A DNA stretch of 62,147 nucleotides, counting the filler, from Candidatus Woesearchaeota archaeon CG1_02_57_44 (GTDB lineage: Archaea > Nanobdellota > Nanobdellia > Woesearchaeales > CG1-02-57-44): assembly GCA_001871415.1 (NCBI GenBank). It is 5 parts of 5 records of this genome, joined end to end, with 100 filler letters (N's around TTAATTAATTAA, not from the genome) between each part and the next. Parts side by side here need not be neighbours in the genome. Positions count along the whole stretch, not along the records: positions 32,524 to 50,652 come from MNWW01000056.1; 4 more parts are not named here. One strand, written 5' to 3'. A program made the position numbers and the translations under genes. This document shows, one piece after another, positions 11,137 to 50,752 of this stretch. Under the pieces are notes generated by a model. The model had not been told where the DNA came from, did no database searches, and worked only from the letters and a program-made list of their open reading frames with translations. Numbering within the stretch: position 1 is the stretch's first letter; every line of letters starts with the position of its first letter.

Positions 11137-12348
11137 ATGAACAAGCGAGGCGGCACCGGCTTTGACATGCTGATAGACTTCATGGGCATCCTCAAGTGGA
11201 CCTTCTTCATCATCGTCGTGTTCGTGTTCATCGGCCCACAGGGCTGCATCTTCCGTCCCGCGACGCAGCGCATTGACTCTGCCACCTCTGACGGACCCCA
11301 GCTCTCGCTGGTCCTGCTCGACCTGCTGCGCTCACCTGCCAATCTCGGCGTCGGGACCACCGCGGCGACCCCGTCGGCAGCAGCGTCAATAGGTACAACA
11401 GCAGGATCGTCCAGCACGGCCACCACCAGCACAGGAAGCGGCGCCACAGGCAGCAGCACGACCGACCCCAGCCTCGCGGAGATCCTCCAGAAGGTGAACA
11501 AAGGAGACGCCGCCATGACCGACTGGTTGCGTGTGAACCTTCCCACCCTGCTGCCCGACCCCTGGCGCTCGCACTACGGCCTTCGTATCGATTTCCCGTC
11601 CGGCTCCATAGGCTACACGCTCGCCACCCCCATCAGCCAGGCGTATGTGGCCGCGGACGATGGCGACGTCATCCGCGTCTCTGTCGTCGCGCTGCTCACC
11701 CAAGAGGATGCCCTGGAACTAGGATTCAATGACCTTGGCGAAGCGCGCCTTGCCGAGTACAACACTGCAGAGGGACTGGAGACATTCAGCGTCCCAACTG
11801 GGGGCAGCGGCTCATTCAATGCAGAGGGCATGCCGACGGACTGGGGATATACACCGTCAGGAACCTGCGCTGATGTCGTAGAGTACGCCTTCGGCTACCT
11901 TGGGACGAGCTACGCCTCGACCGGCGCATGCTCGGCGAGCAGGGCCCGCGCAGGACAGTGCAGCACCCAGTGCGGCAGCTTCGTGAGCAATGTCTTTCGC
12001 TACAGCAGAGGCCCGGCCAGCATCCCCTGGGGCAATGGCAATGAGAAATGCAACAGCGACCAGGTCACCCGTGTGTGGAGAGCCCCTGACAGCCTGCAGC
12101 CAGGAGATATCTTCAGCATCCGCAGCGGAAAATACGGCCATACCGGCATGTACGTCGGCAGAGGCTACTGGGGGGTGGACGCGAAAGGTAACTATGTCTA
12201 TTCGCAGGATCCCAACGGCAAGTATGTCTTTATCCACAGCACGACCGGCTGTAATCCCATCACCAAGCGTTGCCGAGAAGTACAGTTCACCTACTGGGAG
12301 AACATCGAACGCAGGAAGCCTATCTTCTGCAGGAACAAGGTGTGCTAA
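11137..12348 (+). CDS. Pilin-like N-terminus plus C-terminal NlpC/P60 cysteine peptidase
   Basis: MNKRG|GTGF followed by a hydrophobic stretch; Thr/Ser linker; TQCGSFVSNVF...LQPGDIF...GHTGMYVG...FIHST (Cys-His-His). Confidence 0.8.
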   Translation: MNKRGGTGFDMLIDFMGILKWTFFIIVVFVFIGPQGCIFRPATQRIDSATSDGPQLSLVLLDLLRSPANLGVGTTAATPSAAASIGTTAGSSSTATTSTGSGATGSSTTDPSLAEILQKVNKGDAAMTDWLRVNLPTLLPDPWRSHYGLRIDFPSGSIGYTLATPISQAYVAADDGDVIRVSVVALLTQEDALELGFNDLGEARLAEYNTAEGLETFSVPTGGSGSFNAEGMPTDWGYTPSGTCADVVEYAFGYLGTSYASTGACSASRARAGQCSTQCGSFVSNVFRYSRGPASIPWGNGNEKCNSDQVTRVWRAPDSLQPGDIFSIRSGKYGHTGMYVGRGYWGVDAKGNYVYSQDPNGKYVFIHSTTGCNPITKRCREVQFTYWENIERRKPIFCRNKVC

Positions 12349-15300
12349 TGACATCGTCCGCAACGCGAGTGCCAAAGGACCGCGTGTCTGCATCCGGCGG
12401 CTCGCCGTCCAGAGGGAGCGGCGCTAAGAGAACATGGGCTCGTCACCTTCGCCATTGGCGCCTCCATCGCTCCGGCAATTTCATCGTCATCGTCAACTGG
12501 CTTATGATCGGCATCATCCTCATCGCCCTCGTGCTGATGCAGCGCGACTTCGAGCAGGTCTGCCCGGACGGCGCCTGCGCCATAGGCACCCTGCAGCTGC
12601 AGACCATCTCCACGTCCGCCGCATCCGCGAACGCCCGCTGGTATCTCGGTGAGGCCGCGGGGTATGCCATGCAGGAAGCATTGGACGACCTGTACGCGTC
12701 AGGCATCGCCAGCAGCTGCTCGAGTGCTTCAGGCGTCGCTGTATTCTCCTATCAGGGCAATAGCTGCGTGCCGGACACAGCCGCCATCCGCGACGCGCTC
12801 AGCAAGAGCTTCTCCTCACGCATGGAGCCCTACAGCAAATCCTATATCATGGAACAGTACGCGAGCGTCCTGCCCTCCAGCTATGATGTGACGCTTGATA
12901 CGGTAGCCATCGCGACGTCACGCGATCCCCTCATCATCGCGCGCCTTGCCCCGATGGACACGCTCACAGACGATGACGCGACACGCATCGAGCGCATGAC
13001 CGACTGCGCGGCGACCCTCGCAAAAGCAGCGTCAGACCAGGCAGGTGTCGGCGGCTACGCGCCGACCGCGCGGCCCGGTTCTGCCGGCATCACGCCCCGC
13101 GCGTTCTCACCCTCGTCGTTCACGCATTGGGTGTACCGGGCGCTGGATATCGACATAGGATTTCCTGCATATCAACAATATCTGTTCATGGACGCGAACA
13201 CCGCCCAAGGCAGCCGCCTGGTCATCGACGACGGCACACACCTTGACCCCGGCGTCATAGCGTCGCGCCTGCAGCCAGGCGACCTGCTGTTCTTCAACGG
13301 CGATCACCCGCAAGGACCTCACCACATCGGCCACACCGGCATCTACCTTGGCTCAGGCACCTTCGCCCATGTCACCACCGCAGGCGTCACCATCAGCACG
13401 CTGGCAGCGCACCTGAGCACGCCCGAAGGGACGCTGCAGGCGGCCGCCCGCGTCTGTCCTGACGTGGTGAGCAGCGCCGCCGGCGGCGCGAGCGCCACGA
13501 CCGGCACCATCGGATTTGGTACCCTGACCCCTGCCACCATCACGCTAAGCACCGACGGCTCCCCGGCGGCAGACCAGGTAGCAGCCACGCTCAAACAATC
13601 ACTGGCCTCGCTAGGCATCACGGTCGACCAGAAAGGAGTCAGCACCTCCCCGCACCTTCGCCTGAGCCTGGGCACCGGCATCGACCGGGCAGGCATCTAC
13701 TATGGCGCGCCCGACCCTGTCAGCGGGGCCGTCAATCCGTCCATCGCCTCGCGCGAACTTCGCGCCGCGGACCAGCTCTGGCGCGCGTATCAGACGCTGC
13801 TCCCTTCCACTCAGCCCCAGCAGCGAGGTCCCGAGCTCATCTTGGCCCGCGACCCTCCACGGGCAGCAGTCGCGACTACAGCGACGGGAGCCGGCACGCC
13901 CGCAAGCGCAAGCACCTCCACGACCCCTGGTAGCATCCTCCCTGGCAGCGCACTTCCCGTCGGCGCGTCGACGAGCACGGGCAGCCCGACCACGAGCGCC
14001 ACGACGTCGTATCCTCCTGGCATCCATCTCGACCTCGTCGCTCCAGGGTCCGACGGCATCACATTCCTCTCCAGCAGCAACGCCCGCGGCACCTTGGACG
14101 AACAAGTCGCCAGCACATTGGCACTCGCCATCTACACGTTCCTGCGCACGGACGACCCACGGATATCCTTCAAGTCATCCTCCACCGGAAGCTCCCTTGG
14201 CATCTTCGACCTCACGGCGCCATACGACCGCCATGATTCAGAAGAGACGCTGCGAAAGTTCGAGAAGGACCTGGAAAGCAAAGGATTCTCACGCTACATC
14301 AATGAGCAGGCCGCTGCGCAAGGCATCGACGCTGCGCTCATCAAAGCCATCATCAAACGCGAGAACGACGGCCTGGACGCGAACAGCGGCAGGAACCCTG
14401 GCGACCCCCCGGTCAGCCCGCATGACGCGAGCATGGGCTACGGACTGATGCAGATAATCGCTCCCAACGCGTATCCCGGACTGAGCGGAGCCGAGGGCGC
14501 ATGCTGCATAGGCACGTGCGGGATCACCCCAGACACCATCACGGATCCGGAGAAGAACATCTGCTGCGGCACCTGCAAACTCAAAGCCCTGGCCGAGCGC
14601 TACGATAACAATCTCGAGCTCATCTTCGTGGGCTACAACGCGGGCCCTGGCGTCGCGGACCTGATGAAACCCTCCATCAACAACGTCCAGTCGGTCGCCG
14701 CATTCAACCAGCTGCTCCATGATTCGCTGGTGCACTTTGGCATCTATCGCTCGAACCCTGACCGCAAAGTCTTCATCACCTCTGGCTACGTGCTGCATGG
14801 CCTGCAGTACTATCAGTTCTTCGGCGGCGAGACCGGCGGCTTCGTCGACGACACCATGACGCTCGCGCAGCTTCGCGACGCTCCCATCCTGAGCAGCGAG
14901 CACGTCACACTGCTCGCCCAGCAGTCGCCGGACATCGGCCGCGACGTGAGCAGCGCCGCGGGCATCGCGGCAGACACCTACCGGTCCCTGCTCGCCTGCC
15001 TTCGCGACGGATCAGGCCAGACAGGCGATGATGACGCCACGACCTGCGTCTCTCGCCTGACCAGCCCCGGCACCACGGCGCGCATCGACGATACGAGCGA
15101 CGAGCGCATCCTGTACACGCATCTGGAGAGCATCACCCCGTCGGGAAGGACCCTCGCCTATACGGTCGCGGTCCGCGACATCATCCCTCCTCCAGCGACC
15201 CGCTGGCAGAGCATCAGCGCCTCTGGCGGCACGCTGTCGTTCATGTGGCAGGAGAATTTCGCCTCTGACACGGACCAGTACGAGATAGCCTGCGGCGGCA

Positions 15301-15605
15301 GCGTGCTGCACGACACAGACAACACAGAGCGCGGCTGGTCCTCGCCCTACACTGCCATCAGCTGCAACGGCCCCCTGATCGGCGGCAAGGAATATGAGTT
15401 CTCCATCCGCGCCCGCGACCAGCCCAAGGCCATCAACCCCAGCAACCCCACTCAGCGTGCGGACAACGCCGGCACGTGGAGCGCGTATCGTGTCACTATC
15501 CCCTATTGCTGCTACTCACCACCGAGCACCTTCTCCCCGGAGTTGCTGACCTGGCGGAACCATTGTGAACCGGGAGAATCATCGGTCGGCCTGAGCAATT
15601 GCTAG
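12348..15605 (+). CDS. Multidomain membrane-anchored muralytic protein: degenerate NlpC/P60, amidase-like remnant, lytic transglycosylase (SLT), FN3-like domain
   Basis: LQPGDLLFF...GHTGIYLG; IDAALIKAIIKRE, GYGLMQI, DPEKNI, GYNAGPG; YEFSIRARD. The ATG overlaps the upstream TAA. Confidence 0.8.
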   Translation: MTSSATRVPKDRVSASGGSPSRGSGAKRTWARHLRHWRLHRSGNFIVIVNWLMIGIILIALVLMQRDFEQVCPDGACAIGTLQLQTISTSAASANARWYLGEAAGYAMQEALDDLYASGIASSCSSASGVAVFSYQGNSCVPDTAAIRDALSKSFSSRMEPYSKSYIMEQYASVLPSSYDVTLDTVAIATSRDPLIIARLAPMDTLTDDDATRIERMTDCAATLAKAASDQAGVGGYAPTARPGSAGITPRAFSPSSFTHWVYRALDIDIGFPAYQQYLFMDANTAQGSRLVIDDGTHLDPGVIASRLQPGDLLFFNGDHPQGPHHIGHTGIYLGSGTFAHVTTAGVTISTLAAHLSTPEGTLQAAARVCPDVVSSAAGGASATTGTIGFGTLTPATITLSTDGSPAADQVAATLKQSLASLGITVDQKGVSTSPHLRLSLGTGIDRAGIYYGAPDPVSGAVNPSIASRELRAADQLWRAYQTLLPSTQPQQRGPELILARDPPRAAVATTATGAGTPASASTSTTPGSILPGSALPVGASTSTGSPTTSATTSYPPGIHLDLVAPGSDGITFLSSSNARGTLDEQVASTLALAIYTFLRTDDPRISFKSSSTGSSLGIFDLTAPYDRHDSEETLRKFEKDLESKGFSRYINEQAAAQGIDAALIKAIIKRENDGLDANSGRNPGDPPVSPHDASMGYGLMQIIAPNAYPGLSGAEGACCIGTCGITPDTITDPEKNICCGTCKLKALAERYDNNLELIFVGYNAGPGVADLMKPSINNVQSVAAFNQLLHDSLVHFGIYRSNPDRKVFITSGYVLHGLQYYQFFGGETGGFVDDTMTLAQLRDAPILSSEHVTLLAQQSPDIGRDVSSAAGIAADTYRSLLACLRDGSGQTGDDDATTCVSRLTSPGTTARIDDTSDERILYTHLESITPSGRTLAYTVAVRDIIPPPATRWQSISASGGTLSFMWQENFASDTDQYEIACGGSVLHDTDNTERGWSSPYTAISCNGPLIGGKEYEFSIRARDQPKAINPSNPTQRADNAGTWSAYRVTIPYCCYSPPSTFSPELLTWRNHCEPGESSVGLSNC

Positions 15606-32766: not shown

Positions 32767-32822
32767 TTGGCGCAGAGAAAAGAAGGCCATTCACATGGAA
32801 TGAAGTGATTGGGGTGATTGAT

Positions 32823-33122: not shown

Positions 33123-33123
33123 T

Positions 33124-33450: not shown

Positions 33451-33574
33451 TGGCTGTCAGAAAAATAGGCAATAGGAAATTTTGATGGTTCTTACATGGT
33501 CTTGGAACAGGAGAAGAAGTATCAATGAGAGGAATGCAAGCTTTGGTACAAGGATGAATCTTGGGGCAGACAGC

Positions 33575-35005: not shown

Positions 35006-35055
35006 GCCACTGGCAAGTGCCAAAAGCATTATAAGCATTGTGATGGGATGCAGGG

Positions 35056-35583: not shown

Positions 35584-35643
35584 TTGCTGCAGGATGCGTC
35601 AAAACAGAATGCATATAGTCGCTGGCATCACGCATAACTGACG

Positions 35644-35967
35644 CTATCTCTGATCCTTATTCGTCATTCGCTGGTACGCTTCCATGAATGTCACCTGCTG
35701 TTCTTGGTTCAGAGGACGTGGAAAGACATGGCCGAGCGGGGGCTGTATCATTCTGTCGGGCAGGTCCTCAGCATTACCTTGCATGACTCCCTGGGGAATT
35801 TTTGCAACCAAACCCGTGAGATTGGCCACCAAATCATCCAGTGTCTGGAACGGGAATCCGACCGGTCTGGATTCTCCTCCCTGGTAGGCGAAAATTGCGT
35901 AGCAATCAGGCATGTGCGGGCGCTCGAGGCGGACGGGATATATTGGTGTTTTCATAGGATGCGGCAT
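35644..35967 (-). CDS. Hypothetical protein
   Basis: 107-aa ORF with a TATA-like box upstream. Confidence 0.5.
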   Translation of the reverse strand: MPHPMKTPIYPVRLERPHMPDCYAIFAYQGGESRPVGFPFQTLDDLVANLTGLVAKIPQGVMQGNAEDLPDRMIQPPLGHVFPRPLNQEQQVTFMEAYQRMTNKDQR

Positions 35968-36173
35968 TTCTGCAGCAATTCAAGAACCTATCTATTTATC
36001 GCAGGGGGAGTGCGGATTCGCTGTGCTGACAGGTGACTGGAATAGTCGATGTGCTGACGTCTAATGCCTACGTCTGGTGCATAGTATTATGGACGTCTTG
36101 AGGCATGTCGGGTGCGCGGACAGCCCACGCAACCATTAACTTTAAATACACCCTCCAAAATGCACCAATTCCA

Positions 36174-36275
36174 ATGAAGCGTTCCTCGCGACGGTGGAAG
36201 AAGAAGCGGCAGATGCGCTGGAAGTGGCAGCGCAAGAAGATGAAGAAGGAGAAGCGCCGCAGAGCGAGGAAGTAG
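36174..36275 (+). CDS. rpl41e: Ribosomal protein eL41 (eS32); not in the ORF track
   Basis: MKRSSRRWKKKRQMRWKWQRKKMKKEKRRRARK with the MRWKW signature; TTTAAATA at 36141. Confidence 0.88.
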   Translation: MKRSSRRWKKKRQMRWKWQRKKMKKEKRRRARK

Positions 36276-36300
36276 CTCCACGCTTGATTGTTGTTGGGGC

Positions 36301-36427
36301 TGCTTGTTTCTGTTTTTTTCTGGCTTTGTCTATGCTTGTTTCTGTTATTTTCTGGCTTTGTCTATGCTTGTTTCTGTTATTTTCTGGCTTTGTCTATGCT
36401 TGTTTCTGTAATTTTCTGGCTTTGTCT
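36301..36427. repeat. 32-bp tandem repeat, about 4 copies
   Basis: Unit TGCTTGTTTCTGTTATTTTCTGGCTTTGTCTA with no spacers. Confidence 0.92.
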
Positions 36428-36908
36428 GTTTTGCAGTCGCTCTCGCTCTGCAGCCTGGCTGATGATCCGAATCAGACTGGGCAGGCATCTCGCTGCGTGA
36501 GTATGTCACAGCATTCCCGTCAATGGAGCGCGCGGATTCTTATGCGCAGATTCTTATGATGGGTCGCAGAGGTTTCTGCGGGAGAATTGTCATCGGGACA
36601 CTACTATCCATGACGCGCGCTTGCCTGCCACTTTGCAGGGATTGGTCGCCGGCGGACCGCGACCTCGCCCCAGCTTATCGCAAGGCGCTGCCAAAGATTT
36701 CAATGCGCTGCCAAAGACTTCTGTGCGCTGTGAGTATGCGCTGGTTCATCTGTCAGGACCTTCATCAGGACCCTTATCGATACCCTTATATATACCCCCT
36801 TGTTATCCCGGAACGCCTCGCCCACAAATGTGGCGCGATAGACTTCTGCAACTGCACCATTAGTTGCATGATGGCAAGATTCTTGCCGTCGGAAAGGGGA
36901 CAATAACA

Positions 36909-36917
36909 CTTAAATAG
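36909..36917 (+). promoter_or_regulatory. Putative TATA box of the rRNA operon
   Basis: CTTAAATAG preceded by an A-rich BRE-like stretch, about 190 nt upstream of the 16S. Confidence 0.45.
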
Positions 36918-37099
36918 GGGTGCCATTTCACGGCAACTCTCCTGTTTGGGTGGGAAGTCATTCCCAATCACCTCCATGCGCCGCAAGGCGCGATGTGGTG
37001 TATGCCAAAACTGAAAATTTGGCATGAAAAAGGCATGTGCAGTTTGTTGTATATCTTTGTATGACGAACCGCTATAGACGTTTGCGACCTATTATAATC

Positions 37100-38572
<1,473 letters not shown>

Positions 38573-38681
38573 TTTCTTTATTCATGATCCCGTAAGGGAT
38601 GATGGTGAGGAAAGAACAAACAGACAGGAAACATTATAGCGGAGCCCGCAAGGGTGCTGCACATGCCTTCCTATTCACAAT

Positions 38682-38788
38682 GGGCCCGTAGCTCAATTTG
38701 GCTAGAGCGTCCGCTTTGCAAGCGGGAGGCTTCGGGTTCAAATCATGAGTGGGCCCATCCCACCGTGGGGAAAGTCCCGACGGGTCCA
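38682..38788 (+). tRNA. tRNA-Ala(TGC) with a 32-nt T-loop intron (about 38743-38774)
   Basis: Acceptor GGGCCCG/CGGGTCC; anticodon TGC; the T-stem TCGGG/CCCGA encloses 39 nt instead of 7. Confidence 0.9.
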
Positions 38789-40863
38789 TTGTTCCTGCTC
38801 ACATATGCTCATATGATGAGCACCATCCCAAGGCGCAACTTGGGGTGGTGGTTAGCTGATAGTTACGGCCTTCGGGCTATAACATTGATGAGGCTATGCA
38901 CCAAAAAGCAAGAACGCTGCCAGGTGGATGACTAGGCTTCAGCGCTGATGAAGGACGTGGCAAGCTGCGATAAGCTCCGGCGAGCTGCATGCAAGCATTG
39001 AACCGGAGATCTCTCAATGGGATTCCCATCAGGCCGATAGGCAGGGAACGTGGGGAATTGAAACGTCTGAGTACCCACAGGAGAAGAAACCAATTGGGAT
39101 GCGGTGAGTAAGGGCGACTGAAAACCGCGCAGGGCAAACTGAATCCTTTGGTGAAAGCCAGGGGAGATGTGGTGTTTTGGCTCATCATAACGTCCGTGCT
39201 TTCTGACACGAAGTTCCCTGGAACGGGATGCTACAGAGGGTGATAGCCCCGTAGTGGAAGGAAAGCGTGGATGGGATGCGGCCAGAGTAGGGCTCCTCGG
39301 ATATGGGGCCTGAATTTGGGGGGCATCAACCTCCAACCCTAAATACGACTGAAGACCGATAGCGTACGAGTACCGTGAGGGAACGTTGAAAAGAACCCCC
39401 GCAAGGGAGTGAAAAGAGCCTGAAACCTGGTAGCTATAGTTTGATACGGCCTTTAGGGGTTGTATCGTGCGTTTCGAATAACGTGCCAGGGAGTTTACTT
39501 CTGTGGCGAGGATAACTGCCTTAAGGCAGGCATCCGCAGGGAAACCGATAAGCCCGCAACCGCAAGGTGAGGGGCAGGGCGTGAAAGCGTCCGGAGTCAC
39601 AGGGGTCAGACCCGAAGCCAGACGATCTAGTCCGGGGCATGGTGAAGCGCGGGTAAAACCGCGTGGAGGCCAGAAGCAGTGCTACGTGCAAGTGCATGCG
39701 TGACCTTGGATTAGGGGTAAAAAGCCAATCGAGTCTGGTGATAGCTGGTTCCTGCCGAAATTGGCCTAAGTCAAGCCTCAGCTGAGGAGGGTGCGGTGGT
39801 AGAGATACGGATTGGGGATTTAGGGCTTTAACCGGCTCGGTCCTTTGTCCAACTCCGAATGCCGCACCTCTGTAGACGCTGGGAGACGGGGGCCCGGGGT
39901 AAACTTGGGTCCCGAGAGGGGAACAACCCAGAGCACAGTTAAGGTCCCAAAATAGTGGCTAAGTGTGAAAGGCATAAGGGTGTCTATGGTCGAAGACAGC
40001 GAGGAGGTTAGCTTAGAAGCAGCTACCCTTGAAAAAGTGCGTAACAGCTTACTCGTCAAGATCATAGGCCCCGTAAATGGACGGGGCAAAGCCACTTACC
40101 GATACTGTGCCATCGCCACAAGCGATGGGTAGGCAGGCGTCCTGCAAGGGCAGAAGCGTGTCTGTGAAGATACGTGGACCTTGTTGGAATGAGAATCCTG
40201 GTGGTAGTAGGATCGGAGCAAGGTGAGATTCCTTGTCGCCGAAAGGGCAAGGGTTCCTTGGCAATGTCGATCAGCCAAGGGTTAGTCGGCCCTAACCGAC
40301 CTCCTAACTGGAGGGTGTGAGGAAAGGGAGACTGGTTAATATTCCAGTACTGTGAGAGTATGCGTGGTGACACAAGCTGCGTCGCAGACGCTTTGGGCTA
40401 GGCGGACAGAACTTGTCTGTTCTGCTAACACGTGCAGGCCTGGGGAGTAACGTAATGTTGAGAACCAGGGCAACGCGTGGAATGGCACCCCTGAGGGTGT
40501 TTCGCTGATGTCGGGAGCCCGTGAAAACGTGACGTGGAAAAATCTCTTACAACCGTACCAAGAACCAGCACTGGTGCCCCTGGGTGGGAAGCTCAAGGTG
40601 TGAAGGCATAATCCAGTTGAGGGAATTCGGCAAACTAGCCCCGTGTCTTAGGTCGAAGGGGTCCCTGAGTTGGTACCGGAATAGGTGCCTTCTCAGGGCG
40701 CAGTGACTAGGATGGTCCGACTGTTTAACAAAAACGCAGCGAACTGCAAGCCCGTAAGGGTGTGTACAGTTCGTGACGTCTGCCCAGTGTCAGTACCTAA
40801 AACCCGGGTCCAACCGGGCTAAGGGCTGGTAAACGGCGGGAGTAACTATAACTCTCTTAAGGT

Positions 40864-41544
40864 GAAGCGTTGCCTTAGTAAAATTCGGCTATATGCTGGA
40901 ACATCCGTGTATCCCGCATTACCACTGGACAACCATCCATAACGATTATTACAGGGGTTGTTGTCAGGGTGACAAAATGACGGGTGCGGACAATCAGCAG
41001 GAAAGGCTAGATGCCCGATGGATTGCAGGATTCGTGGACGGCGAAGGATGCTTCCACGTTGCGATCAACAAGCTCGACAAGATGACGAGAGGTTACCAGG
41101 TATTGCCGGAACTTCGCATTGTCCAGAACAAGCGCGATATGCGGTTATTGCACCGCATTCAGCAGGTTCTGGGTGGCGTGGTCCGGCATAACCATGATGA
41201 CATCTACGAAGTCAGAGTACGAAGACTTGAGGAATTGCAGCGGGTCGTGGATTTTTTCCGCAGGTATCCATTACAGTCCCAGAAGCGACATGATTTTTCA
41301 TGCTTCGCTGAGATTGTCGGAATGATGGCGCGACGCCAGCATTTGACGGTCGAGGGATTGGAAAAGATTCGCAATATACGAGATCGTATGAACAGGGCGT
41401 CTGGAATCCTCAGAGACTGCACGCCGAACCTCCGCAAGGGGGATGATACAGTCCGAACCGTCAGGCGACTGGCGGAGGCATGATGAAAGTCATGTCCGCC
41501 ACAGTGATGTGGTCAGTAACCCGCAAGGGTGAAGTAACAGTTTG
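40864..41544 (+). ncRNA. Group I intron at LSU position ~1931 (681 nt)
   Basis: 5' exon ends CTTAAGGT; IGS GCCTTA; P ATGCTGGAA, Q AATCAGCAGG, R TCAGAGACT, S GATACAGTCC; terminal G before AACGAAATGCC. Confidence 0.93.
40977..41483 (+). CDS. Single-motif LAGLIDADG homing endonuclease
   Basis: WIAGFVDGEG, YPLQSQKRHDF, HLT.EGL. Confidence 0.93.
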   Translation: MTGADNQQERLDARWIAGFVDGEGCFHVAINKLDKMTRGYQVLPELRIVQNKRDMRLLHRIQQVLGGVVRHNHDDIYEVRVRRLEELQRVVDFFRRYPLQSQKRHDFSCFAEIVGMMARRQHLTVEGLEKIRNIRDRMNRASGILRDCTPNLRKGDDTVRTVRRLAEA

Positions 41545-42528
41545 AACGAAATGCCTTGCCGTTTGAATGACGGCCTGCATGAATGGCGTAACGAGATCGT
41601 CGCTGTCCCCAACTGGAAGCCTCCGAACACTACATTTGTGGTGCAAAGTCCACAGACCGCTAGTGGGAAGTGAAGACCCCGTGAAACTTTACTGTATCCT
41701 GTAGCTGCGTGACGAGTGTTGCTGTGTAGCGTAGATGGGAGTCGCCGAAGCTTGATCGTCAGGTCAGGTGGAGACAACGATGAAACACCATCCTGCTTCG
41801 CTTGCCATGCTTTACTCGCATGCGAGGACACCTATAGGTGGACAGTTTGGCTGGGGTGGCACCCTGCTGAAAAGGTATCAGCAGGGCCCAAAGGTCGGCT
41901 CAGGCAGGTCAGAAATCTGCCGTTGAGTGCAAGGGCATAAGCCGGCCTGACTGGAACTGTAACATGATCAGGTCCAGGCGCGAGAGCGTGGCCTAGCGAA
42001 CTCCCGCACCTCCTTGATGGGGGTCGGGAATGACCGAAAAGTTACTCCGGGGATAACAGAGTTGTCGCGCCCGAGAGCTCACATCGACGGCGCGGTTTGC
42101 TACATCGATGTCGGCTCATCCTATCCTGGCCGTGCAGAAGCGGCCAAGGGTGTGGGTGTTCACCAATTAAAAGGGTTCGTGAGCTGGGTTCAGAACGCTG
42201 TGAGGCAGTTTGTTTAATATCTACTAGCGGTGTTGGGCGTCTGAGAGGAAGGATCTTCTAGTACGAGAGGAACGAAGGTTCGCGGCCTCTGGTTTACCGG
42301 TTAGCTGACAAGCTATGCCGGGCAGCTACGCCGTAGCTGATAAGGGCTGAAAGCATCTAAGCCCGAAGCAGCCCCCGAAAAGAGACGCTCTGGGATACGG
42401 ACAACAACATCCGGTTGATGGAGCCGGTGTGTACGCACGAAGCTTCGGCGACGTGTTCAGCACGCGGCAACCAATAATCCTTCGCTTTTGGTGCATAGCC
42501 TCTTCTTTTTTTTCATTGTCTGATCAAT

Positions 42529-42597
42529 GCATAGCGTCAGCTGTGCTGGTCGGGTGATGGTGCATGGTCATGATGAAGCATAGCGTCAGCTGTGCTG
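42529..42597. repeat. Two 20-bp direct repeats downstream of the 23S
   Basis: GCATAGCGTCAGCTGTGCTG at 42529 and 42578. Confidence 0.7.
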
Positions 42598-42758
42598 CTG
42601 GTGGCGATGTCGCATAGACAAGGACATAGGCGCAGCTATGGTCTGCCGCGCTGTCCAGTTGTTTGATGGCGTAGCGGGAGCGCTGTCGCAAGGCACCTTG
42701 CGAGTCACACTACTCCACTGGCACAACCTTTTTCAATCCTGCATATATTCCCTCCCGT

Positions 42759-43232
42759 ATGTCACTCTTGCTTAGCATGCTTGGAGAGATGTTTGGTTCC
42801 GAAGGATACAATCCTGCCATTGTCATGGATTTCGCCAACTGCGTCTTCACGGACAAGTGGAAGACGCTTGCTCCTGAGCGGGCTGGCGAGATCCTTGATG
42901 CTATCGTGCATGAGGAACTCAGGACCGCGAGGACTGATATCGAGGCGAGGATGGCGCAAGGAGAGTCTCCCATTGTCTATACGCCTGCCTGGACCACGCA
43001 AGTGGGGACAGGCGCTGGTTACATGCAGGATAATGAGATGGCGTTGATGACGCAATTATTGACCGGCGAAGCCCCGCTGGGTCCGGCCGGCGCGATCCTC
43101 TGTACGGATGAATTCATGCTTTCTGGCTGCCAGTTCGCTTATGAAAATGTCCTGGCCCGGGCGAATCCGGGTTATCAGGTGCTTAACGGGCATAACGCAT
43201 TGGACGGCATAGGGTTCGAGAAGGGGGCTTAA
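42759..43232 (+). CDS. Hypothetical protein
   Basis: 157-aa ORF. Confidence 0.6.
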   Translation: MSLLLSMLGEMFGSEGYNPAIVMDFANCVFTDKWKTLAPERAGEILDAIVHEELRTARTDIEARMAQGESPIVYTPAWTTQVGTGAGYMQDNEMALMTQLLTGEAPLGPAGAILCTDEFMLSGCQFAYENVLARANPGYQVLNGHNALDGIGFEKGA

Positions 43233-43304
43233 GACTCCAGTCTACGCTGTCTCATTTATTGTCAGGTGGTTCAGTGTACCCTGCCGAATCGATGCACTTT
43301 TTAC

Positions 43305-44573
43305 TTATAGACACGTATGCACCGTTATCCCATCAGCCGGTGTGCATTCCACCAGTCGCGCAGTATCCCGGTATTCTGGGAACTCACGCTTGAAGTGCCC
43401 TATGCATTCCCCGAGCTCTCCGATCACTTGGTCATAGCACTCGGTCACAGGCACGAACGCGGCGACACCGCCGCCGATGCCTGCGCCGACCTGACGAGCC
43501 CCTACCACGCCGTGGACAGTCAGCGCCGTTCCTGTCAAGGACTGCAGCTCGGATGATCCGACGTGGAACTGTTGGTCCAGCGAGTAGCCCGCTGCGGTGA
43601 TGAGCTGGCCGCCCAGGTCACCCTGCTCCCACAGGCGCGTTCCTTCATTGATCCTTTCTATGGCTCCATAGACGTGCATGGCGACAGCGCGCTCCTCGGG
43701 TGTCAGCTGTGATGCCCAGCGCAGGAACTCGCTGGCAGGGACTTGGCTGAGTCCTCTGCCATCCACGTACTCTCTACCAGTGAGGTCGCAGAGGTTCTGC
43801 GCGGCTGCATAGCACAATCGCACCCTTTCATTGTAGAACCTGTTCTCTGTCAGGTCGCGCTGCTTGCCGGAGTACAGGAAGAATATCTTGAATTCTGGCA
43901 TTCCTGCTCCTGGCTCGACGATCCTGAAGAAATCAGGGTTGCCATCAGCGTACGCCTCGCAGTCCATGTACACAAGCTTGCCGGCTTCGCCGAGCGTGAT
44001 GATGCCCTGGTCGAGGATGCCGTTCTGCAGCCCGAGAAAGCCGTTCTCGATGGCCTTGTCCAGCTCGATGAGCTGCGCTTGCGAGACCTGTCCAGCCAGG
44101 CCATTGCATTGCAGCAGGCCCGTCAGATAGTTGAGTCCTATCGATGCTGATGAGCTGAGCCCGGCAGACGTGAAGATCTCGCTGCCGACCAGTATAGTGG
44201 CTCCGCGCTCCAGGGGCGGGAGGTGGTGGTCCTGCTGCAGCGCGTGCACAGCGCCGACGGCGTAGCGCGCCCAATGACCGTTGAGTTCTGCCGCTGTTGG
44301 GATGCTATCAAGGTCGAACTCCAACGACCCGGCATATTCTGGGTCAAGGCTCTCGACCAGGACCGTATGTCTCTTGGATCCACCATTGGGCGCGAAGGCA
44401 CCGTAGACGAATCCAGGCGCCGCGACAGAAAGGCCATTGACCGGCCCGAGCTGATGGTCCGTATGGTCATCGTGCACGGGCAGGCGGCCGGATGTCTGGC
44501 AGACCACTATGTCCTGTAGGCGCGCCCCTGTCTTGCCTACAAGGGCTTGGATGACTTGTTCTTGAGTGGCCAT
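43305..44573 (-). CDS. GHMP sugar kinase, galacturonokinase/galactokinase-like
   Basis: HTDHQLG, GLSSSAS, IENGFLGLQNGILDQ, YNERV, GARQVGAGIGG. Confidence 0.85.
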   Translation of the reverse strand: MATQEQVIQALVGKTGARLQDIVVCQTSGRLPVHDDHTDHQLGPVNGLSVAAPGFVYGAFAPNGGSKRHTVLVESLDPEYAGSLEFDLDSIPTAAELNGHWARYAVGAVHALQQDHHLPPLERGATILVGSEIFTSAGLSSSASIGLNYLTGLLQCNGLAGQVSQAQLIELDKAIENGFLGLQNGILDQGIITLGEAGKLVYMDCEAYADGNPDFFRIVEPGAGMPEFKIFFLYSGKQRDLTENRFYNERVRLCYAAAQNLCDLTGREYVDGRGLSQVPASEFLRWASQLTPEERAVAMHVYGAIERINEGTRLWEQGDLGGQLITAAGYSLDQQFHVGSSELQSLTGTALTVHGVVGARQVGAGIGGGVAAFVPVTECYDQVIGELGECIGHFKREFPEYRDTARLVECTPADGITVHTCL

Positions 44574-44769
44574 GGTTGTCTCCTCCTTGTATTGGTTGCA
44601 TATCTGACATCATGCTTCAGGTGCAGAGGATTCTCCTGAGTTTCAAAAACATTGTGCCTACAGGGAATTTTTCGTCTGGTTCTCTTTCACCATGAGCGTG
44701 CATCCCTCAGTGAGGTCGGCCCATCCAAAACCTATTTAAACCCCTGTCTTTAGAGACTATCTGGGTCGT

Positions 44770-45711
44770 ATGCATAAGCAGGCGCAGCTGGCCGCAACTC
44801 TGGTTGTGGGAGTCGTCATCATCCTTGCGGTAGCGATGGCCTCCAACAGGCCTACTGCGCAACAGGTCATTCCGCAGGGTGATGACTCGGTGGCTACGTT
44901 GGTGCAATCCTGCTTGCAGCAATCGTTGGAGCAGGCAGTCATTGATTACGGCGCTGAGCCGCGCTGGTGCTACAAGGACGGTGTCCTGGCTCATTTTGAT
45001 GATGCCTACACCCGCGTGTCTGACCTTGTGCGCTCCAACCTGCAATCCTGCATCGATCTCACCAACAGGCAGAATGTCGAGGCAGGGGCGCCGTCTGTAC
45101 GTCTGGCATTCGGAACAGATGGCATCACTGCGGGACTTTCCTTCTCTCCTCCGCTGTCAGTGACCACCAATACTGGCAAGCAGCGCTTCACGGACTTCAC
45201 TGCTGATCGCGGTGTGCGCCTGCGTCTGATAGTAACAGCGGCGGAGCGGCTGGCCGACGACGTTGACTCAGTAACGCTCTTTGAGCGCACGCGCCAGATG
45301 CTTGAGGCCGATGACATCACTGCCCGTTTCACCACGCTGGGCGATGAGCACACCCTGACCGTGACTGACGAGCATACAGGTGACGCGTTCACCTGCAAGA
45401 TACTGCTGCCTCCGGGGCAGTCCACCCTGAATGGCCTGCTGCCGGTCTTTGACTCTGGCACGTGTGTCCAGGCATATGCTGGCCTGCCATCATCCTGCAT
45501 CGTCCACGCATTAGACCCGGACAGCGCGTATGTGGATGTTGTGTCATTGTCTCCTGATGTGCAGGTCGAACAGCAGGGGCCGTATGCGGCCAAGCTGAGC
45601 TTCACTGCGGCATCGGCGCTGAGCGAGCTTGACATCCCGCTGCGGTTGCGTGATTCAGAGAATAATTTCAAGGACGTCACACTGACGGTGCAGGTGGTGC
45701 CGCTTGTCTGA
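44770..45711 (+). CDS. Class III signal peptide (type IV pilin-like) surface protein
   Basis: MHKQA|QLAATLVVGVVIILAV; TTTAAA box upstream; paralog of 49952. Confidence 0.7.
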   Translation: MHKQAQLAATLVVGVVIILAVAMASNRPTAQQVIPQGDDSVATLVQSCLQQSLEQAVIDYGAEPRWCYKDGVLAHFDDAYTRVSDLVRSNLQSCIDLTNRQNVEAGAPSVRLAFGTDGITAGLSFSPPLSVTTNTGKQRFTDFTADRGVRLRLIVTAAERLADDVDSVTLFERTRQMLEADDITARFTTLGDEHTLTVTDEHTGDAFTCKILLPPGQSTLNGLLPVFDSGTCVQAYAGLPSSCIVHALDPDSAYVDVVSLSPDVQVEQQGPYAAKLSFTAASALSELDIPLRLRDSENNFKDVTLTVQVVPLV

Positions 45712-48700
45712 TGTCTTGTCTAATAGCAGGATGCAGTGCAGGGCACAAGTGCTCCTGCTGATGATGCTCATGGTGCTGGCCGTGGTTCCTTCATCTGTCC
45801 AGGCAGAGCCCGAGCTGCGAGGCAAGATAGCCAAGCTCATCATGGCAGAGCCGGGAGCACAGACGCTGAATCATCATATCGGCGCTGTCATCTTCATGGG
45901 TGCTGATACCAAGGAGAAGGACAGTACGCAGATCAAGGCACTAATCAAGCCGTATGCTGATGACGGCATGATAGTTGCTTCTGATATGGAAAGCGCGACA
46001 GTCAATCGGTTGCAGTCCATTTGTGCGCTCAAGGCAGCATCAGACATGGCTAGTGATACAGAACTGCGGGCATACATGAAGGAAAAGGGCGAGTGCTTCA
46101 GATCAGTCGGCATCAATCTTGACCTCGCGCCGGTGTTGGACATCTCAGGAACTGGCAATGAGGTGAATGCCCGCAGCTTCGGGACCGACGCCCAAACGGT
46201 GAGTGCGGCTGGAGCATTGTATATCCTTGGTCTGCGGGATGCTGGTGTCGGCGCGACGGCGAAGCACTTTCCTGGATTGTACGGTCTGAGTTCAACAAGA
46301 ACGGACACGACCTTGGTGAGCATCCAAAAGACTGAGAGCAAACTTGATGGACGAGAGCTTATCCCCTTCACCAAGGCCAAAGAAGCAGGTGTCTACGCAG
46401 TCATGATGTCAAGCGCGTTGTTCCCATTGCTTGATCAGACTGATGAGCAGAAGAAGATGCCCGCAGGCATCAATCCGACCCTGGTGGCAAAGGCCCGGCA
46501 CATCTTCGGCACCGATACAGTCATCATGACCGATGCGCTCAACACCGCGACATTCAAAGCTTACTACAAGGATGATGATGATTATATCGTCAAAGCGGCG
46601 GTCGATGCCTTACGCGCCGGCAACGACATGGTGCTGGTCATGGATCCTGCGAAGATAGACGCGGTCATCACGGCGGTCGAAGCTGATGTGACGAACACAC
46701 AGGATGACACGCTCACCCAAGCAGATATCGACGCTAAATACGCCCGCGTCAAGACCCTGACCGAAAAGCTCACCAAGGGAACGACGACTGGAGCGACAGG
46801 CTCAACGTCGGACACCACCACAGGCACCAAGACCGTCCAGTCCCAGCCGACCGTCATCGTCCTNNNNNNNNNNNNNCGTCCTTGACCCGGGGCATGGCAC
46901 AAAGGGTGTCAGGACCTGCGCTGGCGACCCGGGTGATAAAGGTGCCAATACAGAGGAGAAGCTGAACCTGATCCTGTCGAACAAGGTCAAGGCAGTGCTT
47001 GAGGCAAAGGGCTACCGTGTGCTGCTCACCCATGAGAAAAGCGACTGCTCAGAGAAGCTGGCGACCAAAGGCACGGACGGGAAAGGGGAAACGCAGCCCG
47101 AGAAGGACTATCGTATCTCCGACCGATGGGCGCGCGCAGACGTCGCCAACAACAATGGCGCTGCATTGCTGGTGGCCCTCCATAATGATTACAAAGAGGG
47201 CGGTAGTGCCGTGTACTATCCTGATCATCATCTGCAGGAGACCAAGAGCAAGCAGGCCGCCAAGAGCATCTGGGCAAAGCTGAGTGCGGCTATTCCAGAG
47301 AACATCAAGCACAGCGGGGTCCTGACAGAGGATACTGCGCTGAAAAGTCATGCTAACCTGCAGGGCACACCGCCCGACGACGGCAAGTCCTTCAAGTTTG
47401 ACTGGTCCGCGCACAGCACCGTGCCGGTGGTCACGGTGGAGGTCGTGCCACTATCAGCTGCAGGCATCACTTTTATCAGGACTGTCCCTAATCAGCAGAA
47501 GGTCGCGCAGGCCATTGCCGACGGCATCATGGCGTTCGCGCCTGCGACAACAACCACGACAGGTTCCTCCACCGGCACAGCAGACCAGCCCCATGGTTCC
47601 TTCTCTGACATCCCTGAGAAGCACTGGGCCGACCCACTGGTCAAGAAGGTTACTGCCGCTGGCCTGATGACCGCAACAGACGGCAAGTTCAACGGCGCTG
47701 CCGCAAGCACGCGCAAGGACGTGCTGATTGCGCTGGGCAAGGCGCTGCAGGACAAGATATTCTCGGTGAAACAAAATAAGGATGCCATAACAAATGAATG
47801 TTCTGATGGCGCGCAGGTGTATGGCGAGCAATTGACAGGCAATGACTGCGTCGCGGCTTCTGCTCTGGCCAGCGTCACAAAACCAACAGTCCCAGAGCTG
47901 GCTGTCGAACCAACGCGCCTTGATGTGGCCGGGCTTCTGGGCGCTGCCGCGACTGCGCTATCACTGCCAAAGCCGCAGGCCCTGAGCGCGCTGGACATTG
48001 ACCCCAAGACTATCTGGTCTGACGCTGACGACGCGAGCGCTCCTGTCATCAAGGCAGCGGCTGAGTACGGGCTGTTCACCGGATACCCTAAGGTGGATGG
48101 CAAGTGCTCCTGGAAGCCGTCAGACAAGCTGGTGCGCTATGAGCTGGCGATTGTCGCAGATCGTGTCATGGGCCTTGCCCGAGGCAGCGCAGCGGGCATC
48201 AGTCCTGGATATTTCGCTGATTGCAGGAGCGCGGCAGAGGCGACGGCAAAGCAAGCGCAATGGGGCGAGGAGCATCCTTTGCCTGATGGTGGTCTCAAGC
48301 GCGATAAGCTGGAGGTGCGAGGCATAGGCACGATGCAGGAGGCGGGAAGTGACCTGCGCATCAACCTCGAGCCCAAGCCAGGTGCGATCACGGTGATGGG
48401 GACGCAGATAACGTCTGAGGAGCCATCGACCATTGAATTCATTGATGGCATATTCACAGTCTCATTGAAGAAAGGTGGCTTCTCAGCCGATTATCAGGTA
48501 GAGCAGGCGACTATCACCTTCGGCAAGACAGCAATTGATCCTAAGGTCATCACGCTGGCGCAGGGAGGGTCCATGGCATTTGCGCCCGCGAGCCAAGGAC
48601 AAGACCGCCCCGATGAGCAATACCGCGTTGACGGGCCCTTGTCTGTATTGCTGCTCGCTCCGGGCGCATCATTCCCTAAAACAGCAGAGCAGGACATCGC

Positions 48701-49838
48701 TATCATCCCGGCGCATGGCGATAAGCCCATGCAGCTGCGCATCTACAAGGGCAAAGGCAAGGTCACTATCGGCAGTGTGGAAGTGACATTTGAGGCCGGT
48801 GCCATCACCAACCAGGCAGACCTGAATAATAAGCAATCATCCATCGCGGCTACGGTGACTGACGTGCGGGGGACGAATGTCATATTCGCGCCAAAGTCTG
48901 ACGCGGTGGTGACCGAGGGAACGGGCGCTCACACAAGTAACGCAGCATCACCTCCAACAACAGTCACTCCCGGGTCATCAACGAAGATGACCATTGCCAT
49001 GTCGCCGCAGGTATTGACGTTAAGTGATGTGGCTCAGATTCAACCTAAGAACGTGCCAAAGATCATCTCCGGCCTGCTGCGCTTCATGCTCCTGAATAAC
49101 AACGGGTTCGACATAGTCGCTCAAAATAATCCAGGTGCCACTGTCAAACTGGATGTGACCGCAGCGGTCAATGGCGTTTCAACAGATGTGGTAGAATATG
49201 GGCCTGAGCTTCAGGCTCTTGGCAATGCCCTGACGAAAGAACTGGATGCGGAGGGTATATTGCCTGGGACTACTGCAACAAAGACAACCACGCCAAAGTC
49301 CCTACGCCTTAAGCTCAAGGATCCGAAATCTGACTCTATCGGTGTGGTGACCGACGCGTTGTACCGTGGCCTGGTCGCGCGCCTGAAAGACGTGCAGGGC
49401 ACAGACGCTCCCACGTCGCTTGTTACCGGGGAAGCGACAGAAAATATCGTGATTGAGCTGTATTTCAAGGCCAATGACCGCGATTCTGAAAAATTAGCCA
49501 GCTACCTCGCAAAGCTCTTTGATCCTCAGACCGGGCCGTATAGGGGCATCAAGAACACACAGGTGCGCCTCACGCAGGATCCCGATGCGTTCAAGATGCG
49601 CATAAAGACCGATGGCAATGCAAACGCAAACAAGCTCAAGCAGCTCATAGAGAAACATACTGATTCCATTGCAACAGTGACCGTGGTATCAGACACTACC
49701 AATGGCAATTATGTCACCATCGCAGGGCTCACGTACAATGACAAGACCACAACGCAGCTCTTCAAGGCCATGCTGCAGTATCTGAACATCCTGGATCCAA
49801 GCCTGATGGTAGAATCCCCCTCTGCTGCTACGCCTTGA
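45704..49838 (+). CDS. Fusion of GH3 beta-N-acetylglucosaminidase (NagZ-like), N-acetylmuramoyl-L-alanine amidase (Amidase_3), SLH domains and a C-terminal region; spans a false scaffold gap
   Basis: GINLDLAPVLD, RSFG, KHFPG, MTDAL. CGTCCT is repeated on both sides of the N gap, giving TVIVLDPGHG. Also EEKLN, ALHND, VTVEV, FSDIPEKHWA...TR and GLFTGY...VRYE. Confidence 0.8.
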
Positions 49839-49951
49839 TCTGGTCAACTGCGATAGGTTGACTTCTCGCCCATGACCTCCTTTTCTGCACCCCTGAATCT
49901 CGCCGAAACCTTTATAAGCTGCATTGTCCAATATCAGCCCGGGCAAGGTCA

Positions 49952-50652
49952 ATGATGAAAGCGCAAGCTACGGCGTTCATAGTGCTCGGCATAGTGGTTC
50001 TCATCGCTGTTGGCTCTGTCCTCCTGCTGCGTCCTGCGCAGCAGAGCGCTGTGCAGACAGGCATCGGGCAGGCAGTCTTCACCTTTACGCAGCAGTGCCT
50101 GCAGCAGAGCGTTGATGAGGCAGTCTCCCAGCTTGGCTCTGGCGCGCTGGTCTGCTATCAGGACCGAAGCTTCATCACGGTCAGTGAGGTGCAGGAGTTC
50201 CTGCAGCAGGTGGCGAAGCGTAACCTTGAGCAGTGCCTTGACTATGGCGCGTTTGCTTCGCAGGGCATGCGGGTGGATGAGGGTGTGTATGATTTCTCCC
50301 TGCGGGTGCGCGATACAGGGCTGGAGGCGGGCATGGCCTTTGACGAGCCGCTCATCGTCTCTGACAGCAGGCGCGAGGAGCGCTTTGACGCGTTCTCGTA
50401 CGATTCACCCCGGCCGGTCCGGGCATTGGTGCAGACTGCTGCCAGCGGCGCTGACTATCTGGACGAGGCATCCTGGTTCGCGTGGCTGCAGGAGCGCGCG
50501 GCAGAGGATGGCATTGACCTGTCAGTTGAGAGCGCTGACGCCATGCACGTGCTCAGCGTGGTGCACGGTGATACGATGCTCAGATGCGGCATGTACCTGC
50601 CAGCAGGACACAGCACCATCAACGGCATGCTGCCCATCGCGGTGCAGGTGCC
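49952..50652 (+). CDS. Class III signal peptide (pilin-like) protein, truncated; paralog of 44770
   Basis: MMKA|QATAFIVLGIVVLIAV; shares CLQQS, CY and PxGxSTxNGxLP motifs with 44770. Confidence 0.75.
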
Positions 50653-50752
50653 NNNNNNNNNNNNNNNNNNNNNNNNNNNNNNNNNNNNNNNNNNNNTTAA
50701 TTAATTAANNNNNNNNNNNNNNNNNNNNNNNNNNNNNNNNNNNNNNNNNNNN
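50653..50752. other. Artificial contig linker
   Basis: N-run, TTAATTAATTAA, N-run. Confidence 0.98.

Follow-up and report, generated by a model that had tools for sequence, protein, structure and literature searches.

Peptidoglycan hydrolases of modular build, often with Sec or Tat signals, feature prominently and in diverse forms in Nanoarchaeota (Strock et al., 2025, PLoS Biol, PMC12352652), and the "large lytic murein transglycosylases" of Woesearchaeota have been read as predatory tools, with reference to the earlier aquifer genome AR20 (Vigneron et al., 2022, PMC9723730). On the side of the type IV filaments, class III signals are found on non-pilin proteins and scattered pilin genes are usual in DPANN archaea (Sivabalasarma and Albers, 2026, PMC13705601), and the Epd pilins of Methanococcus maripaludis are cut at KGQI, KGQV or RAQI sites by the peptidase EppA, which needs a glutamine at +1 (PMC4371748). 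SLH, GH3 and pili have no occurrence in the main text of the first of these papers, pili have none in the second, and the main text of the third mentions neither hydrolases nor peptidoglycan. In the literature searched, Woesearchaeotal wall hydrolases have so far been tied to no delivery or display machinery. By what means DPANN archaea gain access to their partners and make use of them is still open, and it is a matter of debate whether any of them live on bacteria. The subject of the present study is a locus in a 62,147-base stretch of DNA (the window, along which all coordinates are counted) from Candidatus Woesearchaeota archaeon CG1_02_57_44 (genome G000), in which a predicted peptidoglycan hydrolase with GH3, Amidase_3 and SLH domains (45731-49838) stands between two genes of a family referred to below as adaptors (44770..45711 and 49952..50652). 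Our preferred reading, to which we give an even chance of being correct, is that this locus exemplifies a two-gene cassette, adaptor plus cargo, which is common among Woesearchaeota-type DPANN, and that the cargo is here a surface-held, SLH-targeted wall hydrolase.

Wall hydrolases in Woesearchaeota are already published, and the first-pass annotation of the window was right in stating that such enzymes are known in archaea, DPANN included (PMC12352652; PMC9723730). The cassette is apparently undescribed: in the literature searched on DPANN or Woesearchaeotal pilins and wall enzymes, supplementary tables aside, no description of it was found, nor of the hydrolase-bearing pilin-like clusters reported below. 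A conserved adaptor-cargo pair in most genomes of the phylum is a concrete, testable handle, and the cassette draws attention to large secreted proteins, several hundred in number and unannotated, with which these cells probably do their work at the surface.

A predicted modular hydrolase between two adaptor genes

The hydrolase gene lies on the + strand of contig C66 (window 32524-50652) and is interrupted by a scaffold gap of 13 N (46864..46876) with CGTCCT on either side. Its first part (45731..46863) opens with an ATG 19 nt past the stop of adaptor 1 (45711) and encodes a 25-residue Sec-like leader ending V-Q-A|E, a NagZ-like GH3 domain (45818-46759; PF00933, E 3.8e-37 in the open reading frame (ORF) 45704-46861) and a Thr-rich linker that runs into the gap. 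The second part (46877..49838) encodes an Amidase_3 domain (46878-47528; PF01520, E 2.7e-20 in ORF 46878-49835, covering profile positions 2-172 of 174), a further Thr-rich linker, SLH repeat(s) from 47598 and some 560 aa of unknown fold, which had no relatives in a solved-structure sequence search with the 986-aa amidase part or in an Atlas look-up. The SLH match scores 26.7 bits against a Pfam cut-off of 20.8 (21.8 bits in the genome search, where this protein was the sole SLH match in G000), and a further SLH-like repeat is recognisable by eye only.

GH3 and Amidase_3 almost certainly belong to one gene of about 1,370 codons. The frame upstream of the gap stops two bases into a codon and the downstream frame starts with V-L-D-P-G-H-G, which is Amidase_3 profile position 2, its earliest start codon being 39 codons inside the domain; a real gap length of 0, -6 or any multiple of 3 would bring both frames into one. 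The single-gene reading is thus a matter of frame and domain logic, because no orthologue was found: among 7,998 candidates scored as longer forms of the GH3 part, 58 proteins reached E <=1e-10, the best being 33-34% identical, and a word-index search with the amidase part returned only its own fragment (P0001). GH3 is fused to other wall-hydrolase domains elsewhere, as in P0007 (M23+GH3+SLT) and P0050 (Amidase_3+PF18013+GH3).

The H, E and H positions of Amidase_3, which we take to be metal ligands, align with CwlD (7rag) and are all present. The best solved relatives of the GH3 domain are GH3 beta-N-acetylglucosaminidases (6k5j, E 5e-28), and the NCBIfam beta-N-acetylhexosaminidase model matches below its cut-off (E 2e-24). 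With a catalytic domain whose active-site residues are intact and a wall-binding SLH domain, the protein looks like a modular peptidoglycan hydrolase, its activity being predicted. The first-pass annotation had counted four peptidoglycan-cleaving activities at two loci, the second being 11137-15605 on contig C64. Pfam recovers these domains; a catalytic residue is missing from two of them (the GH3 His and the P60 Cys, see below), GH3 and Amidase_3 count as one gene, and the two loci, being on different contigs, are unlinked in the data.

An adaptor family with prepilin-type N-termini

Adaptor 1 (44770..45711, + strand) is a 313-aa protein in which the N-terminus K-Q-A|Q and a hydrophobic helix are followed by a flexible linker, a head (39-212) and a cadherin/Ig-like domain (223-313; Z 8.7-7.1 in the VIA structure search). 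Adaptor 2 (49952..50652, + strand) starts with M-M-K-A|Q and is cut off by the contig end; its missing end was not in the G000 assembly (tblastn), and a full-length form with 94% identity is P0002 (412 aa), whose cluster includes a Candidatus Woesearchaeota archaeon record. The two are paralogues without a Pfam or NCBIfam family, and their own family is visible by profile only, since phmmer with adaptor 1 against 1.84 billion representatives gave just four matches: P0005, a fragment, a repeat protein that is spurious, and the second paralogue in its full-length form. Adaptors 1 and 2 match the family profile with E 9e-37 and 7e-24. A three-row profile was run against 401 sampled genomes of the phylum (counts include five flagged as unpublished) and gave about 1,009 matches, which place the family in 345 of these genomes and in 252 of 281 genera. 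The module is always N-terminal, in proteins of 170-2,644 aa. The best profile matches in G273 and G120 are orthologues of P0005, itself a profile row, and their neighbourhoods are free of Pfam wall-hydrolase domains.

The N-terminal pattern was counted over 40 aligned rows, 37 of them distinct as three loci were fetched twice. Lysine occupies -3 in 36/40 and R/K occupies -2 in 39/40; residue -1 is G in 31 rows, A in 6 and S in 3; glutamine stands at +1 in 40/40, F at +5 in 36/40 and G at +9 in 38/40, within a stretch that is hydrophobic from +2 to about +22. A plain membrane anchor would not be expected to be conserved position by position in this way, and the signature K-[RK]-[GAS]|Q with some 22 hydrophobic residues corresponds, as far as primary structure can tell, to an EppA/Epd-type class III signal, which would be processed as such. 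Adaptors 1 (K-Q-A|Q) and 2 (M-K-A|Q) are somewhat degenerate members, whose class-III-like N-termini are beyond chance because both match a family profile in which Q at +1 is kept in 40/40. The class III-like N-termini read from the window at first pass hence hold for both proteins that flank the hydrolase, and fail for the hydrolases themselves, the CRA|Q leader of the GH3-amidase being Sec-like.

AlphaFold2 models built from family alignments (pLDDT 86 for adaptor 1 and 88.8 for the core) place a helix at 3-25 and an alpha/beta head at 39-212, joined by a linker of low confidence (26-38), with one invariant cysteine and a second, nearly invariant one. When the head was searched by itself in VIA, 11/50 rows were type IV pilins or pseudopilins, all rows having Z <8, among them PilX (Z 6.3, rmsd 3.4, 88 aligned), EpsI-EpsJ (5.3) and GspK-I-J (5.2); a pilin-like head is at most suggested. 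Foldseek on both models was informative for the Ig-like domain only.

Filament-related genes are present in G000 (1.53 Mb in 77 contigs, 82% complete, estimated contamination 0.1%), which has a single Peptidase_A24 (prepilin peptidase) gene on C54 (E 1.8e-13), six T2SSE and seven T2SSF matches, the filament ATPases being on C39, C48, C26, C57, C68 and C53. G000 also has about nine archaellin-like genes on C26, C54 and C57, with N-termini K-A|E-M-G-M-G-T-L-I-I-F, and several small pilin genes; the archaellin-like genes suggest from their N-termini that this small-genome archaeon is motile, and the sole A24 peptidase found would serve both archaellin-like and Q+1 substrates.

A two-gene cassette with diverse cargos

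Cassettes were examined in 40 family matches with short open frames, one per genome, for which contig edges and unpublished genomes were avoided and about 9.5 kb each was taken. The profile found 49 adaptor genes in these loci, 47 of which have a visible downstream neighbour. A cassette was scored when a gene is followed, at a distance of -80 to +135 nt, by another in the same orientation whose product has >=300 aa and starts with a hydrophobic leader, which was the case for 42 of the 47 adaptor genes vs 20/166 other genes (>=150 aa) of the same loci. The five failures are L046, L059, L061, L076 and L078. The source genome conforms, as six out of six assessable ORFs among its seven with an adaptor module have this pattern, and so does the window, in which adaptor 1 is followed within 20 nt by the hydrolase and adaptor 2 comes after it and runs off the contig. 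In some genomes adaptor and cargo are fused, and the C-terminal parts of fused forms (L032, L029, and G000 C12 and C77) match split cargos with E 5.5e-25 to 4e-4. Tight coupling in 42/47 cases and fused forms together argue for a joint function of adaptor and cargo.

The cargos are diverse, with little pairwise similarity, and in the three sets scanned 35/41, 5/7 and 4/5 have no Pfam family. Recognised domains are Amidase_2 (G070), T6SS_VgrG3-like_C (G226, E 3e-45), Peptidase_C25, Peptidase_M64, Kelch, NHL, SpoIIE and FN3. Wall hydrolases account for 3/54 split cargos, i.e. that of the window, the Amidase_2 protein and the VgrG3-like C-terminal domain, the latter presumably wall-degrading. The cassette is therefore a general device, of which a hydrolase is one load. 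In subsets of cargos (L055, L071, L062, L065, L070; L056, L072, L066, L054, L041 and others) an acidic domain of ~130 aa follows right behind the signal peptide and is a possible docking region for the adaptor.

How the hydrolase might be held and used

The picture that we favour can be put as a sequence of events. Gene 1 would provide an adaptor with an EppA/Epd-type prepilin signal, a hydrophobic helix of ~22 residues, a flexible linker and a conserved head, and gene 2, tightly coupled to it, a large, highly variable, Sec-exported cargo. The hydrolase would leave the cell by Sec; prepilin peptidase would trim the adaptor, whose helix would keep it anchored, either to the membrane or within a type IV filament; the head would retain the cargo at the cell surface; the SLH repeats might then dock on the wall of a neighbouring bacterium, which the amidase would cut, so that a bacterial host or prey could be opened, or eaten along with wall debris. 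Bacterial walls are probably the substrate, and the surface of the archaeon or its close vicinity the place of action.

Several points weigh against this picture. With only 3/54 cargos recognisable as wall hydrolases, the cassette is no dedicated wall-attack system; its loci were hand-picked from short-ORF matches, and related genomes are not independent. The hydrolase of the window has no acidic N-terminal domain of the kind seen in some cargo subfamilies. Whereas domain content, archaeal origin, cassette conservation and fused forms are shown, the processing of the signal, the binding of cargo by adaptor, incorporation into filaments and a bacterial target are inferred. A complex prediction with the G070 adaptor (28-256, 37-row alignment) and its Amidase_2 cargo (26-356) scored 0.01 vs a mark of 0.32, in a run without controls, which speaks neither for nor against binding. 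As for the pilin nature of the adaptor, 40 members scanned at E up to 1 gave no match to the curated models of archaeal pilin N-termini, the weak matches seen being Tad in 2/40, Flp1_like in 1/40 and TadE-like in 1/40. The low-confidence linker parts helix from head, unlike the continuous alpha-1 of classical pilins. Structure prediction, which had been proposed as a check, gave an N-terminal helix, but the pilin matches to the head are within noise, the top VIA row being an unrelated phosphatase (Z 6.7), and Foldseek found no match for the core model (TM about 0.14). Co-occurrence with type IV genes, likewise proposed, is borne out for the genome and not for the loci: the adaptor-bearing G000 contigs (C6, C12, C50, C66, C70, C77) hold no T2SSE or T2SSF gene, and no filament ATPase or platform gene was found on C66 or C64. 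The GH3 site is degenerate. A NagZ-type catalyst should have an Asp nucleophile and an Asp-His catalytic pair in the motif K-H-F-P-G-x-G...D-S-H (residue roles being our assumption), and in the alignment to 6k5j the T-D of the nucleophile region is kept, whereas D-T-T replaces D-S-H and the expected His is missing.

NagZ-type GH3 and MurNAc-L-Ala amidase are also the two enzymes of muropeptide recycling, and because this is the classic wall-recycling combination, scavenging fits it as well as attack. The hydrolase could then be a freely released enzyme that gains sugars and peptides from the debris of bacterial walls in the medium, the adaptors being adhesins or surface proteins that share the operon without binding it. 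A galactokinase-like GHMP sugar kinase next door (43305-44573, - strand, divergent from adaptor 1; NCBIfam E 2e-40, below cut-off) could be linked to the use of the released wall sugars, predation vs scavenging is left open in the published discussion (PMC12352652), and small-genome DPANN archaea rely on building blocks from outside (PMC9723730). Since the tight adaptor-cargo coupling (42/47) and the fused forms argue for a joint function, and SLH repeats suit docking on intact walls, we regard simple release as rather unlikely, while taking it as the most serious competitor of a surface-held hydrolase.

Hydrolases as proposed pilin-like subunits: contig C64 and the clusters of relatives

The first-pass annotation had gone further and proposed that the hydrolases themselves resemble minor pilins, which PibD/FlaK would process and a pilus would take up as subunits, to present them to bacterial walls. 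In the case of the GH3-amidase, this view draws on a leader in which R-A|Q precedes a hydrophobic stretch, a feature flagged by a crude pattern scan; the hydrophobic core has only some 14 residues, however, and is followed by the Sec-type site P-S-S-V-Q-A|E, the T/S at +3, F at +5 and G at +9 of the adaptor family are missing, and the other 42 cargos have ordinary leaders. On residue pattern, the leader is thus probably of Sec rather than class III type.

The case is less clear-cut for the two proteins of contig C64. The first (11137..12348, + strand) is a CHAP-like membrane-anchored protein with the N-terminus M-N-K-R-G, an amphipathic stretch and then a helix; its CHAP match (E 1.1e-4, 23 bits) is under the Pfam cut-off of 26, and it has a paralogue on contig C24. 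The second (12348..15605, + strand), of ~1,085 aa and also anchored, combines NlpC/P60 (13086-13412) and SLT lytic transglycosylase (14295-14651) domains (E 2.7e-9 and 1.1e-11 in ORF 12270-15602). In the P60 domain aligned to CwlO (8wt3), F-S-P-S-S-F replaces F-D-C-S-S-F, so that the catalytic Cys is missing although a later G-H motif is kept; the Glu of the SLT domain is present, as judged by eye. The family profile finds no adaptor module in either protein, hhalign against the adaptor family gives 3% probability, and their N-termini are ill-suited to a pilin, with three charged residues (D, D and K) in the 17 positions that follow K-R-G in the CHAP-like protein and a basic tail of ~45 residues ahead of the membrane anchor in the P60-SLT protein.

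Both proteins resemble genes of a different arrangement in relatives. Amidase_3 occurs in 37/401 genomes of the phylum (two flagged unpublished), and 20 Amidase_3 loci of other genomes, unpublished ones excluded, were fetched. In nine of these (L094-L096, L098-L103; genomes G207, G269, G071, G028, G154, G191, G400, G233, G047) an amidase of 290-370 aa, with a basic-G/A motif, a membrane helix and intact amidase motifs, sits inside a run of 5-10 pilin-like genes. The basic-G/A + helix pattern is found in 67/86 ORFs of these runs vs 92/331 in control loci, and neighbour genes in some of them encode SLT, or Glucosaminidase plus VanY. We regard these runs as candidates for pilin-like clusters that include wall hydrolases. 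A separate observation is a 702-aa protein of G197 (L087:4032-6137) in which Amidase_3 and Peptidase_M74 (murein endopeptidase) follow the hydrophobic N-terminus R-R-G-A|M-L-L-Y-L.

A profile of the last gene of the clusters (8 sequences) has a single match among the 8,282 ORFs of G000, the P60-SLT protein (E 5.7e-9), and the N-terminal region of the CHAP-like protein, with its M-N-K-R-G start, resembles a cluster gene of G047 (E 2.5e-5). Because of these resemblances, and since C64 starts at a repeat copy only 315 nt upstream of the CHAP gene, the C64 locus may be the tail of a pilin-like cluster. Profiles of the +1 and +2 cluster genes have no match in G000, that of the cluster amidase no convincing one, and in two relatives filament ATPases lie about 30 kb from the clusters. 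A hydrolase on a pilin-like N-terminus therefore fits the relatives (9/20 Amidase_3 loci) better than the window, where neither the CHAP-like nor the P60-SLT protein matches the adaptor profile and the GH3-amidase has a Sec-like leader. As an account of the hydrolases considered here, incorporation as pilus subunits is improbable. The observation from which it started is partly confirmed, and the pilus-display reading, while only partly supported, was not baseless.

It is highly improbable that the enzymes are autolysins that remodel a wall polymer of the archaeon. Bacterial SLH domains do anchor proteins to the wall of their own producer, but the hydrolase is the sole SLH protein of G000, no Mur_ligase_M or Transpeptidase match was found in this genome, which is only 82% complete, and archaeal wall hydrolases are almost entirely outside the pseudomurein-making classes (PMC12352652). 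An archaeon without peptidoglycan synthesis that nevertheless encodes exported murein-hydrolase domains, in line with the first pass, is what the Pfam searches bear out, within the same limit of completeness.

Archaeal origin and other features of the window

The window joins five metagenome-assembled contigs (C63, C64, C65, C66, C67) with four spacer blocks (N44-TTAATTAATTAA-N44, at 10672-10771, 21348-21447, 32424-32523 and 50653-50752), and ORFs that seem to enter the blocks are contig-end truncations. Contig C66, on which the GH3-amidase locus lies, bears an archaeal rRNA operon (37100..42494, + strand: 16S 37100-38570, tRNA-Ala, 23S 38900-42494; Rfam scores of 1458 and 2518 bits for the rRNAs, ARAGORN for the tRNA) that ends 2.3 kb ahead of the locus. 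A repeat of ~140 nt (~244 nt at some ends), with 95-100% identity, is found on >40 G000 contigs, C66 and C64 included, mostly at contig ends; its copies in the window are at 32524-32768, 10772-11001, 20953-21347, 1-243 and 62018-62147. This interspersed element, present in high copy number, causes breaks in the assembly, and as C66, C64 and >40 other contigs share the ~140-nt form with 98-100% identity, they belong together in a single genome. Records named Candidatus Woesearchaeota archaeon hold close relatives of the flanking proteins.

The archaeal rRNA operon, the shared repeat and the Woesearchaeotal relatives of the flanking proteins make a bacterial origin of the locus very unlikely, and the binning of these contigs with bacteria, named at first pass as grounds for rejection, was not seen, C66 having both that operon and a flanking family that is phylum-wide. 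A chimera, in which the conserved rRNA operon of an archaeal contig was the point of fusion with a piece of bacterial DNA (such operons are common chimera points, and C66 has one internal gap and a bacterial-type LspA) is scarcely credible for a hydrolase gene flanked on both sides by a family present in 345/401 genomes of an archaeal phylum, on a contig of even G+C level (0.50-0.58), in a bin with 0.1% contamination, more than 40 contigs of which share its repeat.

Other features of the window can be listed briefly. The bacterial-type lipoprotein signal peptidase LspA of the rRNA-bearing contig is at 35056-35583 (TIGR00077, 93.5 bits vs a cut-off of 73.95). A LAGLIDADG homing-endonuclease ORF (40893-41483, Pfam) within the 23S rRNA gene implies an rRNA intron. 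Thermosome and archaeal signal recognition particle (SRP) RNA genes are on other contigs of the window. ORF 7481-10671 (>1,063 aa, running off the contig end) has a signal-like N-terminus, very dense N-x-S/T sequons and only a weak CarboxypepD_reg-like match, and is a candidate S-layer or surface glycoprotein.

Comparison with known systems

The hydrolase of the window resembles the archaeal enzymes already published in that a catalytic and a wall-binding domain are combined in an archaeon without a murein wall (PMC12352652). It differs in being a three-part fusion of ~1,370 aa and the cargo of an adaptor cassette, no partner gene being described in that paper. The protein at 12348-15605 likewise corresponds to the published transglycosylase, with GH23/SLT in a large Woesearchaeotal protein (PMC9723730), and adds a Cys-less P60 domain and kinship to the last gene of the pilin-like clusters.

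Comparable to the cassette in principle are the bindosome and related class-III substrate-binding proteins, where non-pilin functions are also tied to the type IV machinery by a class III signal and a hydrophobic helix, and where the genes are also away from the ATPase and platform genes (PMC3047682; PMC13705601). In these systems the functional protein itself has the class III signal, whereas here it is on a separate adaptor and the cargo starts with a Sec leader, the two being fused in some genomes; the arrangement of the bindosome is thus absent from the hydrolases of the window, since the GH3-amidase has a Sec-like leader and the adaptor profile misses the GH3-amidase, the CHAP-like and the P60-SLT protein alike. 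Epd pilins share with the adaptors the K-G-Q-[IV] or R-A-Q-I site pattern and the obligatory Q at +1 (PMC4371748). Unlike these small filament subunits, the adaptors have a long linker, a head of ~170 aa and often an Ig-like domain, they have no Glu at +5, and in G000 there is one A24 peptidase only.

A parallel in logic is found in bacteria. In type II secretion, the minor pseudopilin tip complex handles substrates, and its components (GspK-GspI-GspJ, EpsI-EpsJ, XcpV-XcpW) are, like the adaptors, prepilin-type proteins that act on Sec/Tat-exported substrates. There is no sequence relation, tip structures are among the weak fold matches of the adaptor head (Z 5.3-4.5, within noise), and there is no outer membrane or secretin. 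A broader view, possible although we hold it to be doubtful, is one in which prepilin-type adaptors form a general loading system, each being cut by an EppA-like peptidase, set into an Epd-like type IV filament or a short membrane stub, and bringing its own Sec-exported cargo to the cell surface, and in which the hydrolases, together with the pilin-like clusters of relatives, are a contact apparatus that opens bacterial hosts. Wall hydrolases would then be one cargo class, the clusters of relatives would put amidase, glucosaminidase, endopeptidase and SLT directly on prepilin-type N-termini, and the adaptors would do in archaea what secretion driven by a pseudopilus, or display at its tip, does in bacteria.

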